Shown here: positions 3,211 to 15,480 of the stretch, piece after piece
Position numbering within the stretch: the first letter of the stretch is position 1
Layout of the letters: each line of letters opens with the position of its first letter
Assembly: GCF_004365815.1 (NCBI RefSeq)
Contig: NZ_SODD01000025.1
Coordinates: 1-32,000, forward strand
Direction of reading: 5' to 3'
Length of the DNA: 32,000 bases
Source: Breznakia blatticola
GTDB lineage: Bacteria; Bacillota_I; Bacilli_A; Erysipelotrichales; Erysipelotrichaceae
Notes under the pieces: generated by a model
Seen by the model: only the letters and a program-made list of their open reading frames with translations
Databases searched by the model: none
What the model was told of the DNA's origin: nothing
Made by a program: the position numbers and the translations under genes

Positions 3211-3289
3211 TATCTTTTTTAAAAAATATCGTTTTTCTTTAGATTGCTATATACTAAATGTAAGAAAACATAAAATGGAGGATATCATT

Positions 3290-4114
3290 ATGTTTAAAAT
3301 TGGTGATTTTTCTAAGTTATCCAACCTGACAATTCGTGCTTTACACCATTATGAAGAACTGGGTATTCTAATACCTGATAAAATTGATACAATGAGTAAT
3401 TATCGTTACTACTCATCTAGTCAACTAGCAACTGCAAATCAAATCAAGATGTTGCAGCGAATTGGGTTATCTTTAAAATCTATAAAAGAGATTATCGATG
3501 GTGATAATCCTGAAATACTAGAGAGTGGTTTGTTAGCAAGAGAGATGGAAATTCAAAATGAAATTGCAGAACTTAAAATCAAACAGAATCTCATTGACAT
3601 GTATAAAAAGACAATTCATGAAGGACGCTCTATTGCATCGTATCATGTGGAAATAAAAACAGTTCCAAAGCGTAATGTTATGTCGATAAGAAAATGTATT
3701 CCTTCCTATCAAGATGAAGCAGTTCTTTGGAATGCATTATATGAAAAATCGATCCAACAAAATGTGAAAATGGCAACTCCCTACCAAGGTATGAGTATTT
3801 ATCATGACAAAGAATACAAAGAAGAAAATGTTGATATTGAAGTTCAAAGCAATGTGGTTGGTATCTATGAAAACATAGATGATGTAACATTCTATGAAAC
3901 AAAGCCATTTGTGATGGCTTCCATTATCTTTCATGGTAGTTTTCAACAAATGGAAGAAGTCACGCAAGCACTTGCATCATGGATTGAAGCAAATCATTAT
4001 GTAATTGATGGACCAATGATTCAGATTCCTCACGTATCTCCAGCACAGGATGATAATCCAGAAAACTGGATAACCGAAGCAGGCTATGCAGTACGTTTAC
4101 TAAATATAGAATAA
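3290..4114 (+). CDS. MerR family transcriptional regulator with C-terminal GyrI-like (BmrR/AraC-E type) effector-binding domain
   Basis: N-terminal MerR HTH (MFKIGDFSKLSNLTIRALHHYEELGIL), a coiled-coil linker and a GyrI-like C-terminal half of about 150 aa. I place the start at ATG 3290 because GGAGGA lies 7 nt upstream. The ORF-track start at 3275 overlaps that SD. Confidence 0.85.
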   Translation: MFKIGDFSKLSNLTIRALHHYEELGILIPDKIDTMSNYRYYSSSQLATANQIKMLQRIGLSLKSIKEIIDGDNPEILESGLLAREMEIQNEIAELKIKQNLIDMYKKTIHEGRSIASYHVEIKTVPKRNVMSIRKCIPSYQDEAVLWNALYEKSIQQNVKMATPYQGMSIYHDKEYKEENVDIEVQSNVVGIYENIDDVTFYETKPFVMASIIFHGSFQQMEEVTQALASWIEANHYVIDGPMIQIPHVSPAQDDNPENWITEAGYAVRLLNIE

Positions 4115-4148: not shown

Positions 4149-4152
4149 CAAA

Positions 4153-4186
4153 GAAAAAACGCCTACTTGTATGTAGACGTCTTTTT
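4153..4186 (-). terminator. Rho-independent terminator after the pfl operon
   Basis: The minus strand reads ACGTCTAC-atacaa-GTAGGCGT (8 bp including one G-U) followed by TTTTTT. It lies 15 nt after the grcA-like stop. Confidence 0.55.
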
Positions 4187-4201
4187 AATAAATCTTTTGA
4201 A

Positions 4202-4435
4202 TTACATCCCTTCGTGCATTGTACGGTGGATAACATCATCTTGTTGTTCTTTTGACAACTTGTTGAAGTTTACCGCATATCCAGATACACGAATTGTAAG
4301 TTGTGGATATTTTTCTGGGTGTGCTTGTGCATCTAATAATGTTTCACGATCAAATACGTTTACATTTAAATGGTGTCCACCACTTTGTGCATATCCATCA
4401 ATCATTGTTACTAAGTTTTCTGCTTTATTGTTCAT
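4202..4435 (-). CDS. grcA: Stand-alone glycyl-radical domain (GrcA/YfiD-like), equivalent to the C-terminal approx 75 aa of pyruvate formate-lyase
   Basis: [54 protein letters not shown] matches the PflB/GrcA glycyl-radical signature (RVSGYAV). Start taken at ATG 4435 (MNNKAENL), with AGGAAG 8 nt upstream. The ORF-track GTG at 4444 overlaps that SD. Confidence 0.85.
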
Positions 4436-4458
4436 TTTCGCCACTTCCTATCTATTTT

Positions 4459-6465
4459 TTAGTCTTCGTCTTTTCCTAGCGCGTCAGGTACAATTGAGAA
4501 CGTGTTAGAAATTCCATCACGTGAATATTCATATGGTAATTTTGCAACTGATTCAAGTGAAGCTACCGCACCATGTGTATCACGTCCGTGCATTGGGTTA
4601 GCCCCTGGTGCAAAAGGTTCTCCAGCTTTACGTCCATCAGGCGTATTTCCTGTTTTCTTACCATAAACAACGTTTGAAGTAATCGTTAAGATACTCATTG
4701 AAGGTACACCATGACGGTATGTACGGTGTTCTTTAATCATATTCATAAACGTTTTTACTAAGTCAGCTGCAATGCGGTCAACACGGTCATCGTTGTTTCC
4801 ATATTTAGGGAAATCACCTTCGATTTCGTAGTCTACTGCAATACCATCTTCATCACGAATTGGTTTAACTTTTGCATATTTAATTGCTGATAATGAGTCA
4901 GCAACAACTGATAATCCTGCAATACCTGTCGCAAAGAAACGACGAACATCATGATCATGTAATGACATTTCTAATGCTTCGTATGAGTATTTATCGTGCA
5001 TGTAGTGAATTACGTTTAATGTATTTACGTAAAGTCCAGCTAACCATGACATCATTTGTTGGTATTTTTGCATAACTTCTTCATAGTCTAAGTATTCTGA
5101 AGTAATTGGTTCCATTCTTGGTGAAACTTGGATTTTTTTCTTTTCATCAACCCCACCGTTAATTGCGTAAAGTAGACATTTTGCAAGGTTTGCTCTTGCT
5201 CCAAAGAATTGCATATCTTTACCAACACGCATACAAGATACACAACATGCAATTGCATAGTCATCACCCATTTCAATGCGCATCAAGTCATCATTTTCAT
5301 ATTGAATTGAACTTGTTTCAATTGAGATTTTCGCACAGAAACGTTTGAAGTTGTGTGGTAATCTTGTTGACCAAAGAACGGTTAAGTTTGGTTCTGGTGC
5401 TGGTCCTAAGTTTACAAGTGTATGTAAGAATCTAAATGAGTTCTTTGTTACTAAAGAACGACCATCAAGAGACATCCCACCAATACTTTCTGTTACCCAA
5501 GTTGGGTCTCCAGAGAATAATTCATTGTATTCAGGAGTACGCATGAATTTAACTAAACGTAACTTCATAATGAAGTGGTCAATCATTTCTTGCGCTTCTT
5601 CTTCTGTAATTTTTCCAACTTCTAGATCTCTTTGAATGTAGATATCTAAGAATGTAGAAGTACGTCCTAATGACATTGCAGCACCATTTTGGTCTTTAAC
5701 AGCTGCTAAGTATCCAAAGTAAACTGCTTGAATCGCTTCTTGTGCAGTTACTGATGGTTGTGAAATATCGATTCCGTAAATTAATGCCATTTCTTTAAGT
5801 GCGATCAATGCACGAATTTGTTCACTTACTTCTTCACGATCACGAATTCTTTCTTCAGTCATTGAACCAAGAAGAACTGTGTTTAATAAGTTTTGTTTGT
5901 CTTCAATTAAGAAGTCTACACCGTATAGGGCAATACGACGGTAGTCACCAATGATACGACCACGTCCATATGCATCAGGAAGACCTGTGATGATTCCACA
6001 AGTACGTGCACGACGCATTTCTGGAGTATATGCATCAAAAACACCTTGGTTGTGTGTTTTACGGTATTTTGAAAATACTTCTTTAATTTCTGGATCTAAT
6101 TCATATCCATATGCTTGTAAAGCTGTTTCACTCATACGAATACCACCAAATGGTTGTAATGAACGTTTGAATGGTTTATCTGTTTGGAACCCAACGATTT
6201 TTTCTAAATCTTTGTTTAGGTATCCAGCACCATGACTTGTTAATGAAGATACGATTTTTGTATCTGCATCTAACACACCACCAGCAGCAGCTTCTTGTTT
6301 ATTTAATTCTGTAACTTGATCCCATAATGCTTTTGTTCCATCTGTAGGATCTGCTAAGAAACTTTCGTCTCCTTCGTATTCTGTATAGTTACGTTGAATG
6401 AAATCACGAACGTTAATTTCGTCTGTCCAGTTTCCTAAATTAAAACCTTCCCAACCTTTGTACAT
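4459..6465 (-). CDS. pflB: Formate C-acetyltransferase (pyruvate formate-lyase) catalytic body, ending just before the glycyl-radical domain
   Basis: 668 aa, colinear with E. coli PflB from the N-terminus ([23 protein letters not shown]) through the active-site IACCVS to ..[13 protein letters not shown]-stop. SD GGTGAGG lies upstream. Confidence 0.9.
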
Positions 6466-6517
6466 TTGTTTACCTCACCTTCTTAAGGGACAATTCCCTT
6501 ATCATTTCGATGTTTGC

Positions 6518-6546
6518 AGTATAGCATAATCGTATATACTTGTCAC
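6518..6546 (-). promoter_or_regulatory. Candidate sigma-A promoter for pflB (GTGACA - 17 nt - TGcTATACT)
   Basis: The minus strand reads GTGACAagtatatacgattaTGcTATACT, about 50 nt upstream of the pflB ATG. A 7-bp hairpin (6484-6501, TAAGGGA-caat-TCCCTTA) lies between it and the SD. Confidence 0.45.
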
Positions 6547-6644
6547 ACTTTATATAACATCCTATATATTAACATTCCACCAAATATAATATTTTAAACC
6601 ATATATAAAACTTTGTAATTTATATACCCTAATATAAGTATTAT

Positions 6645-6977
6645 TTAGTGCATGGCTTTTGCTTTATATTCTTCCATTTTTGATTCAATATAAATCTCTA
6701 AGATTTCCTCAGGTTGGTACCCTTGTACTTTACTAATTAATTCATCTCTAAATAAAAATAGAATCGTTGGTACTTGTTGTACCTTATAGTATGTATTTAT
6801 ATCTTTGTTTTGTTCGCTTGCATCTACAATATATACTTGTAGATTCTCAAACTTCTTACCGACATTTTGAATAATGGGTGACATTGTTGTACAGTTTGCA
6901 CAACCACCTCCACCAATTAACACCAAAGAAAATTCATTCTTTGCAAATTCATTTCTAAAATTCTCATTTGTTAGCAT
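6645..6977 (-). CDS. Thioredoxin-fold protein with atypical CANC active-site motif
   Basis: 110 aa. GGGGCANCTTMSP sits at the expected CxxC position and a cis-Pro-like QVPT lies downstream. The ATG overlaps the pflA 3' end by 14 nt, and AGGAGT lies 8 nt upstream, suggesting translational coupling. Confidence 0.7.
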   Translation of the reverse strand: MLTNENFRNEFAKNEFSLVLIGGGGCANCTTMSPIIQNVGKKFENLQVYIVDASEQNKDINTYYKVQQVPTILFLFRDELISKVQGYQPEEILEIYIESKMEEYKAKAMH

Positions 6978-7719
6978 GTGATTTTACTCCTAAGATTTCT
7001 TTTGTTCTATCAATAACTTCTTTACTTGGTTTTTGTACACCTTCAAGAGGATATGGAATATTTAAGTTCTGATATTTTGCAATTCCCATTGTGTGGTATG
7101 GTAATACTTCAATTTTTTCAATATTACGATACCTACTTAAATATGTATGGAGTGCTTCTATATCGTGTTCATCATCACTGTATCCTGGAACGAGTACATA
7201 ACGAATCCATACAGACTTGTTATGATCTGCAAGATATTGCATGAAATCTTGAGGATTTTTATTTTCTTTTCCAGTTAATGCTTTATGTTTCACTGGATCA
7301 ATGTGTTTAACATCAAGTAAAAATAAATCCGTTACTTCCAACAATGCATCAAATTTAGCAAGTGTAGCAGCACTGTTTTTTACAAATGTAATTCCACTCG
7401 TATCAACGGCTGTATGTAATCCTTGAGCTTTTAAACGTTTCAACAATTCAGTTACAAACTCGATTTGCACTAGTGGTTCTCCACCACTGATAGTAACTCC
7501 ACCCTTCTTGATGTAGTTTTTATATTTCATGATTTGATTGAATACATCATCTACGCTGTATACATCACCACCACTGCCTATTTTCCATGTATCTGGATTA
7601 TGACAATACAAGCAACGCATTGGACAACCTTGCATAAATACAACAAAGCGAATGCCTGGTCCATCTACAGTTCCAAAGCTTTCAAATGAATGAATTCTCC
7701 CTAATAATTGCTCACTCAA
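6964..7719 (-). CDS. pflA: Pyruvate formate-lyase activating enzyme (radical SAM)
   Basis: 251 aa. Carries the N-terminal GRIHS.ES.GTVDGPGIRFVVFMQGCPMRCLYCHNPDTW (CxxxCxxC) motif typical of PflA. TTG start with AGAGGTGA upstream. Confidence 0.9.
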   Translation of the reverse strand: MSEQLLGRIHSFESFGTVDGPGIRFVVFMQGCPMRCLYCHNPDTWKIGSGGDVYSVDDVFNQIMKYKNYIKKGGVTISGGEPLVQIEFVTELLKRLKAQGLHTAVDTSGITFVKNSAATLAKFDALLEVTDLFLLDVKHIDPVKHKALTGKENKNPQDFMQYLADHNKSVWIRYVLVPGYSDDEHDIEALHTYLSRYRNIEKIEVLPYHTMGIAKYQNLNIPYPLEGVQKPSKEVIDRTKEILGVKSHANK

Positions 7720-12738: not shown

Positions 12739-15480
12739 TTATTTTGATTTTCTTTTATTACGTAAAACAACCATTCCACCTGTCAATGCGATCAATCCAA
12801 GGTAAATAAACCATTCAACACTTGTCGAATCACCTGTATCTACGACTTTATTTGCATCTTTTACTTGCCCATTGAAATCTGGTGCAATGGATGGATTTGA
12901 AGGATTGCTTGGCGAATCTGTATTTGTCTCATTATTAACTGGTGGAAGTACAATTTTTTCCCACTTCGCAACTAATGTTACATCATTATAAATTAAGGTA
13001 TCAAAATCCCAGCTTTGTCCATCAGAAAGTTCCCATCCTTTAAAAATATATCCATCTCTTTCTGGGTCTAACGGTTTTGTTGATGTATTTCCATATTCAA
13101 CTTTTTGTGAATCAATTGGATCACTAGTTCCACCATTCAAATCAAAGATGATGTCAAACTTCGCTATTTCCCAAATATATGTATCTGGAATACTTCCATC
13201 GTAGCTATCCATAAATGTTGTACTATCTGCATATGTATTTCCAGTATGAATACCAATCCAACGACCTGTGTATTTTCCACTTGTCGTATCAATTAATGGC
13301 AATGCAGCACTCTGATCAAGTATGGCATTAGGTCCCAATTGTATAGAACTAAGAAGTGTACAATTGTAAAACATTTGCACAAAATCCGTTACATTTGATG
13401 TATCCCAATTTTCTAAATTAATTTTCTCTAAACTTTGATTTTCATAGAACATACGTTGCATATTTACTACATTACTTGTATCCCAATTGGATAAGTCTAA
13501 TTCCGTAATTGAAGGGCATAGATCAAACATATTTGACATATTAGTCACATTTGCTGTATTCCAATTCGCAATTTCTAAACCATCCAATACGGCGCAGTCA
13601 TGGAACATAAATGACATATCCATAACACTTGATGTATCCCAGTCTTTCATATCTAGTGTTTCAAGTGCACTACATCCTAAGAACATACTTCCCATGGTTG
13701 TAACATTTTCTACATTCCAATCGCTAACATCTAGGTTATTGATATTCTTACTTCTAAAAAACATTAAGTCCATTGCTGTAACACTTCCAGTATCCCAATT
13801 ACTTACATCAAGTGATTCCAAGCTTTCGCAAGCATAAAACATACTCGACATATCTGTAACATTTTCTACGTTCCAATCTGAAACATTAAGATCTGTTAAT
13901 ACTTTACAATTAACAAACATCCCACTCATATCTGTTACAACACCAACATTCCAATCATCGACTGATAATCCAGTGAGTTTGTTGCAACCATAGAACATTT
14001 GTTTCATGCTTTCCACTTTTTCTGTATTCCATGTACTTACATCAAGGTTGTCTAAAATCGTACATCCATAAAACATGCTACGCATATTTTCTACAAGTCC
14101 GACATTCCATTCTTCAACATCTAACACCTCAAGATTCGCACATCCTGAAAACATACTACTCATGTCTTTTACTGCAGCTACATTCCAAGTACTAACATCA
14201 ACATCTGAAAGTTTCGTACATCCCGAGAACATAAATGCCATCGTATTTACATTCCCTACATTCCAATCACTTACAGCAATTTCTTCCAATTTCTTACAGT
14301 TCCAAAACATGTAACTCATATCTTGAATATTATGCACATCCCAATTATCAATTGTTAATGTTGTTAGTGCTTCACAATCTGTAAACATGCTTTTTGTTGA
14401 TAATGTTTTTGATAAATCCCAACCTGAAAGATCAATGCTTGTTAATTTTGTACTACTTCTAAACATATTCTCTAGTGTTTTAACACTTGATGTTTCCCAA
14501 TCAGATAAATCTAAATTTTCTAATTTCGTACAATATCTAAACATGTTTTCCATTGTTTCAACTTTACGCACATCAAAAGATTCAACGTTAATTTCTTCCA
14601 GTGCAAAACATTGGTCAAACATGAATTTCATATCTTTAACTTCACCAGTATCCCAAGTATCTACCTTTAATTCAGTGATTATTTTACATCCTTTAAACAT
14701 TGATGACATATTTGTCACAGCACTTGTGTCCCAATCTTCTACATCAATTTCTGCAAGTACTGAACAACCATCAAACATTCCCATCATTAAGGTTACATTT
14801 TCTGTATCCCATAATGATACATCGACATTTGTTAATGCAGAACATCCTTTAAACATGTATGACATATCTGTAAAAGTTGATGTGTTCCATGATGATACAT
14901 CAATACTTGTTAGTGAACTACATCCCTCAAACATACTTTGCGCGTTAACTGGTCCTGAAAACGTAATCTTCTCTGCACCAACCACAGTTTCTAAACTTGT
15001 GAATTTTTCAAACATACTTGCTGCATTTGTAATTGTCACTGGTTGTGCAAATGTAATCTTCTTAATTTGATTTTTGTGTTGAACAAAGTTATTAGGATTT
15101 GCCCAATGTTCTCCAGTCAATACACCTTGTTGGTAACTTTTGTTTCCACATGTATTCGTTAGTGTACCACCTTCTAGCACGAGTTCTCCATCTGCATACA
15201 ACGTCCAAGTTACACCCCACGTGTTTGTATCAACAACTACACGATCTGCTTGTGGCAAAATCTCTACAGTTTTTGCACTTGGTTTTGTCTCATCCTTAAT
15301 TTCTGTTTGCTCATCTACACGCTTAACAACTTCATCTTCCTTATTAGCTGTTTCTTCGTTTACCTCATCAGTAGTTTGCTCATTTGCATGTATTTCTTCT
15401 TTTGCTAGTACAATACCGTTTGATGAAACTACAATAATTCCAATCAACATCAAAATTACTATCTTTTTTAATTTATCCAT
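12739..15480 (-). CDS. BspA-type / DUF285 leucine-rich-repeat cell-surface protein with a Listeria-Bacteroides repeat and a C-terminal anchor
   Basis: 913 aa with a signal peptide. About 22 tandem 25-aa units fit MFxxCxxLxxLDVSxW(N/D)TxxVTxM. A Flg_new-like unit is present (FDLNGGTS...GYIFKGWEL...DVTLVAKW). The C-terminus has VVDTGDST, a hydrophobic helix and an RNKRKSK tail. Confidence 0.85.
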   Translation of the reverse strand: MDKLKKIVILMLIGIIVVSSNGIVLAKEEIHANEQTTDEVNEETANKEDEVVKRVDEQTEIKDETKPSAKTVEILPQADRVVVDTNTWGVTWTLYADGELVLEGGTLTNTCGNKSYQQGVLTGEHWANPNNFVQHKNQIKKITFAQPVTITNAASMFEKFTSLETVVGAEKITFSGPVNAQSMFEGCSSLTSIDVSSWNTSTFTDMSYMFKGCSALTNVDVSLWDTENVTLMMGMFDGCSVLAEIDVEDWDTSAVTNMSSMFKGCKIITELKVDTWDTGEVKDMKFMFDQCFALEEINVESFDVRKVETMENMFRYCTKLENLDLSDWETSSVKTLENMFRSSTKLTSIDLSGWDLSKTLSTKSMFTDCEALTTLTIDNWDVHNIQDMSYMFWNCKKLEEIAVSDWNVGNVNTMAFMFSGCTKLSDVDVSTWNVAAVKDMSSMFSGCANLEVLDVEEWNVGLVENMRSMFYGCTILDNLDVSTWNTEKVESMKQMFYGCNKLTGLSVDDWNVGVVTDMSGMFVNCKVLTDLNVSDWNVENVTDMSSMFYACESLESLDVSNWDTGSVTAMDLMFFRSKNINNLDVSDWNVENVTTMGSMFLGCSALETLDMKDWDTSSVMDMSFMFHDCAVLDGLEIANWNTANVTNMSNMFDLCPSITELDLSNWDTSNVVNMQRMFYENQSLEKINLENWDTSNVTDFVQMFYNCTLLSSIQLGPNAILDQSAALPLIDTTSGKYTGRWIGIHTGNTYADSTTFMDSYDGSIPDTYIWEIAKFDIIFDLNGGTSDPIDSQKVEYGNTSTKPLDPERDGYIFKGWELSDGQSWDFDTLIYNDVTLVAKWEKIVLPPVNNETNTDSPSNPSNPSIAPDFNGQVKDANKVVDTGDSTSVEWFIYLGLIALTGGMVVLRNKRKSK
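13320..15033 (-). repeat. About 22 tandem 75-nt coding repeats (25-aa LRR units) inside the surface protein gene
   Basis: The motif W(D/N)(T/V)xxVxxMxxMF recurs with a 25-aa period about 20 times, plus two degenerate units at the N-terminal side. Confidence 0.8.

Follow-up and report, generated by a model that had tools for sequence, protein, structure and literature searches.

The window analysed here, 32,000 nucleotides of contig NZ_SODD01000025.1 from Breznakia blatticola, very probably encodes on its minus strand a pyruvate formate-lyase (PFL) built of two polypeptides. The larger one, hereafter the body, carries the catalytic cysteines and stops at the linker that precedes the glycyl-radical domain, and this domain, with its radical glycine, is encoded by a small gene directly downstream. 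The sequence comparisons given below indicate that this PFL is most likely an obligate two-subunit enzyme. Judging from their stop codons, start codons and ribosome-binding sites, the body and the small gene are translated separately, within a single operon ordered pflA-thioredoxin-body-small. Both proteins are 100% identical to Breznakia blatticola proteins, and the source annotations place this species in the family Erysipelotrichaceae. The original prediction, made from the letters of the window, had considered a genuine two-piece enzyme plausible, and the comparative data now strongly support it: the split occurs at the same point across genera and families, the small genes identified are under purifying selection and have start codons of their own, and the spacers between the two genes are specific to each lineage.

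We describe the junction first. The body open reading frame (ORF) terminates in GKDED, followed by a TAA codon at 4461..4459. That this 668-aa ORF ends at the linker before the glycyl-radical domain was a claim of the original prediction, and it is confirmed both by the sequence and by the alignment with Escherichia coli PflB. The spacer that follows reads exactly AAAATAGATAGGAAGTGGCGAAA (23 nt, 4458..4436). It holds an AGGAAG motif 8 nt upstream of the ATG codon at 4435, where a second ORF containing RVSGY begins in a frame that differs from that of the body; each of these details had been predicted and proved correct. The predicted in-frame TAG that blocks read-through is also there, and to it we add that the spacer together with the TAA of the body closes all three frames (TAA at 4461-4459, TAG at 4454-4452 and TAG at 4450-4448). 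Therefore, one frameshift cannot join the body to the small ORF. An alternative upstream GTG start at 4444 would extend the small protein to 80 aa; it overlaps the ribosome-binding site, and the homologues begin at the position of the ATG.

Taken together, the two ORFs cover a complete PFL. The model TIGR01255 (744 positions) is tiled with no loss and no duplication, by the body from position 2 to 664 and by the small ORF from 665 to 744. When aligned with E. coli PflB, the body corresponds to residues 10-678 and the small ORF to residues 683-758. Despite its partial coverage of this formate C-acetyltransferase model, the body alone reaches 1141.7 bits for a cut-off of 994.2, a match that chance could by no means produce. 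The Pfam domain Gly_radical (PF01228) is divided in its middle, positions 1-50 being found in the body (43.3 bits) and positions 52-106 in the small ORF (83.5 bits, E=1.8e-23), and the match of the small ORF exceeds the gathering score. The catalytic pair Cys407-Cys408 lies within the IACCVS motif of the body (codons TGTTGT at 5247..5242), is equivalent to C418/C419 in E. coli, and is invariant in 22 aligned homologues. The codon of the radical glycine, Gly52 of the small protein, is GGA at 4282..4280. The radical glycine and the catalytic cysteines, expected on the same chain in a PFL, are thus found here on separate polypeptides; the activating enzyme expected near a PFL is encoded by pflA in the same operon.

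We then asked whether the split is found in relatives of this locus. The best 120 matches to the body (79-100% identity) are almost all 665-670 aa long, and more than 100 homologous protein clusters have bodies of this length; the matches include proteins of Breznakia, Traorella, Erysipelotrichaceae, Anaeroplasmataceae, Amygdalobacter and "Clostridiaceae" DONG20-135. An alignment of 22 body sequences (79-100% identity) has more than 300 invariant columns. Homologues of the small ORF of about 77 aa number in the hundreds, and the best 120 are nearly all 76-83 aa. In a search of cluster representatives, most of the matches listed were fragments, split and fused PFLs sharing one cluster at 50% identity. 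A genome survey with one genome per species gave 80 loci whose bodies are 70-76% identical to that of the window; this sample is skewed towards relatives of the query, and its proportions are not global frequencies. PFL is split at the identical point in 57 of the 80 species genomes and fused in the other 23. The small gene directly follows the body in 56 of the 57 split genomes, and in the remaining one the contig stops 234 nt past the body. The split form occurs in Ruminococcus albus, R. callidus, Blautia, many Lachnospiraceae, Oscillospiraceae and Christensenellaceae, and also in assemblies of Gastranaerophilales and Sphaerochaetaceae, among others; the genomes with a fused gene include those of Bacillus, Paenibacillus, Clostridioides difficile, Romboutsia, Macrococcus, Roseburia and Calothrix.

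The small ORFs themselves bear the marks of genes. A motif filter that demanded a start methionine recovered 71 of them, all of 76-83 aa; in nearly every case an AGGAGG-like ribosome-binding site can be seen 5-10 nt upstream. Compared with the copy of the window, the ratio of nonsynonymous to synonymous substitution rates (dN/dS) is 0.09-0.18 where it could be measured, and where synonymous sites are saturated the amino-acid identity is still 77-87%. Purifying selection thus acts on the small ORFs, and these findings together show them to be real genes. The spacers, in contrast, lack conservation: they measure 1 to about 85 nt in the loci closest in type to that of the window, the tail-less class described below, and range from an overlap to about 390 nt across all loci, yet each related tail-less spacer retains a ribosome-binding site and an ATG. 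An Rfam scan of the window and of ten related loci gave no match in the spacers. Variable spacers next to conserved small genes argue for two separately kept, long-lived genes, and a recoding signal does not fit this pattern. Among the relatives, the point of the split is thus conserved whereas the stop-SD-ATG spacer sequence (SD, Shine-Dalgarno, the ribosome-binding site) is not, and two outcomes that the original prediction had named as fatal to it are ruled out by these comparisons, namely that close relatives are all fused and that resequencing would reveal a contiguous ORF of about 750 aa.

The operon of the window is compact and occupies 4149..7719 of the minus strand in the order given above (Table 1). 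The start of the thioredoxin-fold ORF overlaps the 3' end of pflA by 14 nt. A promoter-like pair lies in the 179-nt gap between the thioredoxin-fold gene and the body gene; it is a pattern match only, and the whole region has fewer such matches than shuffled sequence. Downstream of the small ORF, the segment 4204..4125 folds with -22.8 kcal/mol (z=-6.0 versus shuffles), and the terminator located there makes the small gene the last gene of the operon. No second copy of the small gene was found within the window.

Table 1. Features of the PFL operon, in the order of its transcription.
Feature	Position	Strand	Basis
pflA, PFL-activating radical SAM (S-adenosylmethionine) enzyme, operon gene 1	6964..7719	-	TIGR02493 PFLA, 323.5 bits (cut-off 231.75); Pfam Radical_SAM and Fer4_12
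Thioredoxin-fold protein, 110 aa, GCANC motif	6645..6977	-	Pfam Thioredoxin, E=1.5e-11
Promoter-like -35/-10 pair: GTGACA, 17 nt, TG-TATACT	6518..6546	-	Consensus scan, 10/12 matches
PFL catalytic body, 668 aa, 75.3 kDa (calculated); Cys407-Cys408, without the radical glycine	4459..6465	-	TIGR01255
Spacer, 23 nt, with AGGAAG ribosome-binding site at 4449..4444	4436..4458	-	Sequence read directly
Small glycyl-radical subunit, 77 aa, 8.8 kDa (calculated), Gly52 in RVSGY	4202..4435	-	Pfam Gly_radical, TIGR01255
Intrinsic terminator, 12-bp hairpin and U-run, about 18 nt past the stop of the small ORF	4149..4184	-	RNA fold

Two observations concern the surroundings of the operon. Between 4125 and 4184, two back-to-back hairpins, each followed by a T-run on its own strand, form a pair of facing terminators that separate the small ORF (minus strand) from a convergent gene for a MerR/GyrI-like regulator (3275-4114, plus strand). 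Farther away, a gene at 12739-15480 (minus strand) encodes a probable surface protein of 913 aa, which contains seven DUF285 repeats along with BspA-type leucine-rich repeats and one Listeria-Bacteroides repeat and has no connection to the PFL finding.

The split loci fall into two classes. The rarer one, to which the window belongs, comprises nine loci (the window, L007, L010, L012-L014, L033, L074 and L096). Their bodies end right after ..LGK(D/E)(D/E), and for this reason we call the class tail-less. The tailed class comprises 52 loci, in which the body continues for 13-39 extra residues. The operon order is pflA-thioredoxin-body-small in the tail-less class and body-small-pflA in the tailed class, where the thioredoxin-fold gene is absent and the spacer is often 200-390 nt long. 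The tail-bearing bodies are those of L011, L015-L026, L028-L030, L035-L037, L039-L043, L045, L046, L048-L058, L060-L062, L064-L066, L068, L069, L071, L077, L078, L084, L085, L087 and L089; the tails form the C-terminal ends of the body ORFs, at about 5480-5620 in most of these loci. They have an acidic "VFxGDLD(I/V)E" segment and are often rich in cysteine (CACCEPN, GACxSPTLFEGLD). Such a tail might aid in recruiting the small subunit. Non-coding spacers of 200-390 nt separate body and small gene in L017-L019, L021-L024, L030, L036, L037, L039, L040, L043, L046, L051, L069, L085, L087 and L089. No Rfam family was found in the seven long spacers of this class that were scanned, and promoter and terminator pattern scans of those of L024 and L046 gave nothing convincing. 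A long spacer of this kind might allow separate expression of the small subunit.

The tail-less class is also distinguished by its thioredoxin-fold gene. All nine tail-less loci, and the fused locus L095, have a homologue of this gene between pflA and the body; none of the tailed or ordinary fused loci does. Conserved among these homologues are a G-C-x-x-C motif, a loop reading VPT(I/V)LL and, as a distinctive feature of the C-terminal end, GYQPEEILE(L)W, and the protein of the window scores well under the cut-offs of ordinary thioredoxin models. Reduction of PflA, reduction of the cysteine pair and handling of the small subunit are possible roles for it.

How stable is the split over time? 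On a rough distance tree of 85 bodies, built by neighbour-joining, parsimony requires at least six changes between the split and the fused state. The fused genes of Roseburia (L079, L086 and L090) and of a Treponemataceae (L073) nest inside the tailed clade, and the fused L080 nests among the tail-less loci. On this tree the two states clearly interconvert, which argues for their functional equivalence. Two of the fused genes call for a comment. The Treponemataceae PFL (L073, 3435-5816) is a 794-aa open frame in which a Cys-containing, tail-like linker is followed by the N-terminal sequence of the small protein, and it looks like a secondary re-fusion of a split gene. The second one, P0190 (L095, 1608-3839), is a fused 743-aa PFL that is 81% identical to the body of the window; upstream of it lie a fragment of pflA and a thioredoxin gene, and downstream comes another pflA, this one complete, on a contig of 5.6 kb with 3.8x coverage. 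It is either a chimeric assembly or a recent recombinant re-fusion. Three further metagenomic homologues, P0001 (111 aa), P0088 (89 aa) and P0189 (805 aa), contain internal tandem duplications; in P0001, for example, a stretch of 29 residues is repeated. These sequences stem from single short or unique contigs and are probably artefacts of assembly.

The way in which two such polypeptides would make a working PFL can be proposed by homology. The body would supply the barrel and the catalytic pair Cys407-Cys408, and the small protein, which corresponds to residues 679-759 of E. coli PflB, would supply the last barrel strand (strand 10), the glycine loop with Gly52 and the C-terminal helix. The small protein would dock into the body, PflA would remove a hydrogen from Gly52 to create the glycyl radical, and this radical would in turn generate a thiyl radical on Cys408/Cys407, leading to the cleavage of pyruvate. 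Oxygen cleaves glycyl radical enzymes at the radical glycine (PMC13450708, PMC8683613). In a two-piece enzyme, oxygen would damage only the 8.8-kDa piece, a fresh copy of which could take its place while the 75-kDa body is kept, and the orphan copies of the small gene found in related genomes could act as spares.

Information on the activity of such an enzyme comes from Amygdalobacter. A. indicium has the same operon as the window, pflA-thioredoxin-body(666)-small(77). In vaginal samples, PFL peptides of Amygdalobacter are abundant; A. nucleatus secretes formate and grows less in the presence of 1 mM hypophosphite, an inhibitor of PFL (PMC12208373). These data are indirect evidence that a tail-less-type operon may give a working enzyme, provided that Amygdalobacter has no second, fused PFL. 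In the supplementary tables of a bacterial vaginosis metaproteome, GrcA is listed for Gardnerella only, and we found no entry of this kind for Amygdalobacter.

Several points weigh against a two-piece enzyme that assembles and works well. Removal of residues 696-733 from oxygen-cleaved E. coli PFL lowers both the binding of YfiD and its activation about 30-fold (PMC8683613), and for this reason efficient assembly in trans is not to be assumed. Moreover, an AlphaFold2 model of the body, computed with 22 close homologues, had a mean pLDDT (predicted local distance difference test) of 50.5 and was too poor to use. Finally, the fused forms found inside split clades suggest that the two states are roughly equivalent.

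The orphan copies just mentioned bear on the idea of a replaceable radical part. A second, orphan copy of the small gene, remote from every PFL body, is present in Breznakia pachnodae (L091/L092, 5001-5234) and in Erysipelotrichaceae MTC7 (L093/L094, 5001-5237). Its location is conserved: it follows three DegV genes and lies within 1-2 kb of Fur-family and rubrerythrin genes, with an ECF (extracytoplasmic function) sigma factor gene in between in one lineage. In our opinion, the vicinity of the Fur and rubrerythrin genes gives circumstantial support to the plausible idea that the small subunit would serve as a cheap replaceable part. A further orphan, P0107 (L001-L006, 5001-5234), is 82% identical and occurs on 67 contigs, with no PFL gene within 5 kb; it stands directly after two ABC (ATP-binding cassette) exporter genes and before a large helicase-like gene. 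Two facts count against an adaptive repair function or are neutral towards it, namely that fused enzymes thrive in related anaerobes and that the split has been reversed several times on the tree. On balance, our confidence that the split is an adaptation of this kind falls somewhat short of even. The same tentative standing applies to the wider proposal that, in many anaerobic Bacillota and some other gut lineages, PFL would be an obligate two-subunit enzyme with a consumable radical subunit, replaced from the operon or from orphan copies, and that the tail-less class would add to it a dedicated thioredoxin-fold partner.

The same data can be read in other ways. One of them accepts that the two-piece enzyme works and sees in the split a near-neutral gene fission, kept in many lineages and sometimes reversed, and not an adaptation to oxygen damage. 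We take this possibility seriously without holding it to be probable. It would account for the six or more changes between the two states and for the fused genes nested within split clades (L079/L086/L090, L073 and L080), and it agrees with the fact that the small proteins have no docking element beyond what the fused sequences contain. However, the split form prevails among the gut Clostridia that were sampled (57 of 80) and has outlasted the saturation of synonymous sites, the additional orphan copies lie near genes that resemble oxidative-stress genes, and one class has gained a dedicated thioredoxin and the other a conserved tail, which suggests co-adaptation. Another reading would make the small ORF a GrcA-type spare for a full-length PFL encoded elsewhere, the truncated body being an inactive remnant or otherwise employed. 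The name given by NCBIfam to the small family, "autonomous glycyl radical cofactor GrcA3", designates a repair factor and speaks for it. We nevertheless consider it improbable, since a remnant body would decay, whereas the body is strongly conserved in length and sequence with an invariant Cys-Cys pair (22 sequences), shares its operon with pflA, and is directly followed by the small gene in 56 of the 57 split genomes.

Two more explanations would restore a single chain, and we give next to no credence to either. In one of them, the split results from a sequencing or assembly error, or is a pseudogene private to this strain, in a gene that is normally fused. Apart from prior expectation, only the close fused relative P0190 (743 aa) favours it, and the contig of P0190 is possibly chimeric, with its short length, its low coverage and pflA-like genes on both sides. 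The identical body is found on nine independent contigs and the identical small protein on five, and more than 100 related clusters end at the same residue; the comparative data thus refute this explanation. In the other, a fused product would arise through ribosomal frameshifting, bypassing or protein splicing. All three frames are stopped at the junction, the spacers, from overlapping to about 390 nt, contain no conserved element and no Rfam match, and the small genes identified have their own start codon, nearly always with a visible ribosome-binding site. As for splicing, the junction shows neither an intein-sized insert nor a conserved nucleophile. We retain, as the most likely reading, an obligate two-subunit PFL with body and small subunit made separately.

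What would such an enzyme mean? PFL is the founding glycyl radical enzyme, and there is continuing debate on how the activase gains access to its buried glycine loop. A widespread natural form of PFL whose radical domain is always separate would make the activation step directly testable, on the free subunit versus the complex. If the consumable-subunit proposal is true, nature would offer here a case of PflA acting on a radical domain that is free, and the principle of the GrcA-type emergency "spare part" would be the normal operating mode of the enzyme. A naturally split PFL would also be a benchmark when spare parts are to be engineered for other oxygen-sensitive radical enzymes, and it is relevant to how well abundant anaerobes of the gut and the vagina, such as Ruminococcus, Blautia, Lachnospiraceae and Amygdalobacter, tolerate oxygen. 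There is a practical side as well. The bodies are annotated as "formate C-acetyltransferase" with no mark of their incompleteness, and the small genes as repair factors or generic domain proteins. As a consequence, cloning the annotated PFL gene alone would yield a protein unable to carry the radical. For specialists, the frequency of the arrangement takes something away from the interest of the finding, as do signs that other groups already work on it.

Indeed, the pieces have been handled before. The original prediction knew of no described obligately split PFL. As far as publications go this stands, for none of the papers that came up in our searches on GrcA3, on split or two-subunit PFL and on radical domains acting in trans describes a split PFL. 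It does not extend to databases, where the NCBIfam model NF038360 (GrcA3) describes the small family and where a homologous body, with its end at the split point, is deposited in the PDB as 38la. The small ORF spans positions 3-78 of the 78 of NF038360, with the glycine of RVSGY present, and narrowly misses its cut-off of 158 with 153.7 bits (ATG start) or 153.8 bits (GTG start). The tail-less class as a whole straddles this value (153.7-159.4 bits), and the tailed class lies above it (161-171 bits). This narrow miss is probably why NCBI labels the protein of the window "glycine radical domain-containing protein". PDB 38la is a His-tagged 667-aa "formate acetyltransferase", 99-100% identical to the body of Amygdalobacter nucleatus. 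Its sister entry 38lb_A, likewise a "formate acetyltransferase" chain, has 739 aa and goes on for about 53 residues after the split point, without a match to the small ORF; it is probably a tailed-class body. Both entries are absent from a PDB copy that runs to 8 April 2026 and were thus released later; no associated paper was found in a literature search for 38LA and 38LB. As a match to the small subunit, E. coli PFL is surpassed by none of the PDB chains. The pieces have thus passed through the hands of curators and of at least one structural group, and we found no statement that they form a natural bipartite enzyme. In a 2026 review of glycyl radical enzymes, radical domains that stand alone figure only as repair parts of E. 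coli and phage T4 (PMC13450708), and in a 2021 study the E. coli and T4 spare parts are the only validated ones (PMC8683613).

These spare parts, GrcA/YfiD and the phage T4 protein Y06I, are the closest known systems. Like the small subunit of the window, they are small free-standing homologues of the C-terminal region of PFL that holds the radical glycine; PflA activates them, and they can supply this glycine in trans to a PFL body, as the small subunit would do. The small ORF aligns with residues 68-126 of E. coli GrcA (E=4e-22). GrcA is longer (127 aa) and begins with about 60 disordered residues, which are important for its activation (PMC13450708, PMC8683613). In contrast, the small ORF has no N-terminal extension; it matches positions 64-125 of the 126 of the GrcA/YfiD model TIGR04365 (spare_glycyl) with 95.8 bits, far below the cut-off of 170, and does not qualify as a GrcA/YfiD by this model. 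Moreover, GrcA rescues a full-length PFL only after oxygen cleavage, whereas the neighbouring PFL gene of the window is without the domain altogether. An engineered E. coli pair comes closer to this situation, since it combines a PFL body without its radical domain, tPFL(1-695), with a minimal radical domain in trans, truncYfiD(61-127). This pair acquires a glycyl radical, although poorly, and its components by themselves acquire none (Andorfer et al. 2021, PMC8683613); the yield was 2.7 uM, versus 15.9 uM for cleaved PFL with YfiD (PMC8683613). Nature has placed the cut about 15 residues earlier (E. coli 679-682), and the natural small subunit contains in addition an NLxxMxDGY segment.

Other relatives differ in other respects. 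The body in PDB 38la, 79% identical to that of the window and with the same end at the split point, was deposited alone. The GrcA3 proteins of Ruminococcus, Blautia and Lachnospiraceae, all of the tailed class, share with the window the small family and the split point, and differ by the tailed body, the downstream pflA, the lack of a thioredoxin gene and the often long spacer. Benzylsuccinate synthase (alpha-beta-gamma) and 4-hydroxyphenylacetate decarboxylase likewise combine a large catalytic subunit with small ones. In these multi-subunit glycyl radical enzymes, however, the radical glycine is on the large subunit and the small subunits are accessory, whereas the small subunit of the window itself carries the glycine. 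We therefore see in this locus an ordinary member of a widespread arrangement, a variant of the PFL/GrcA theme and not a new kind of system.

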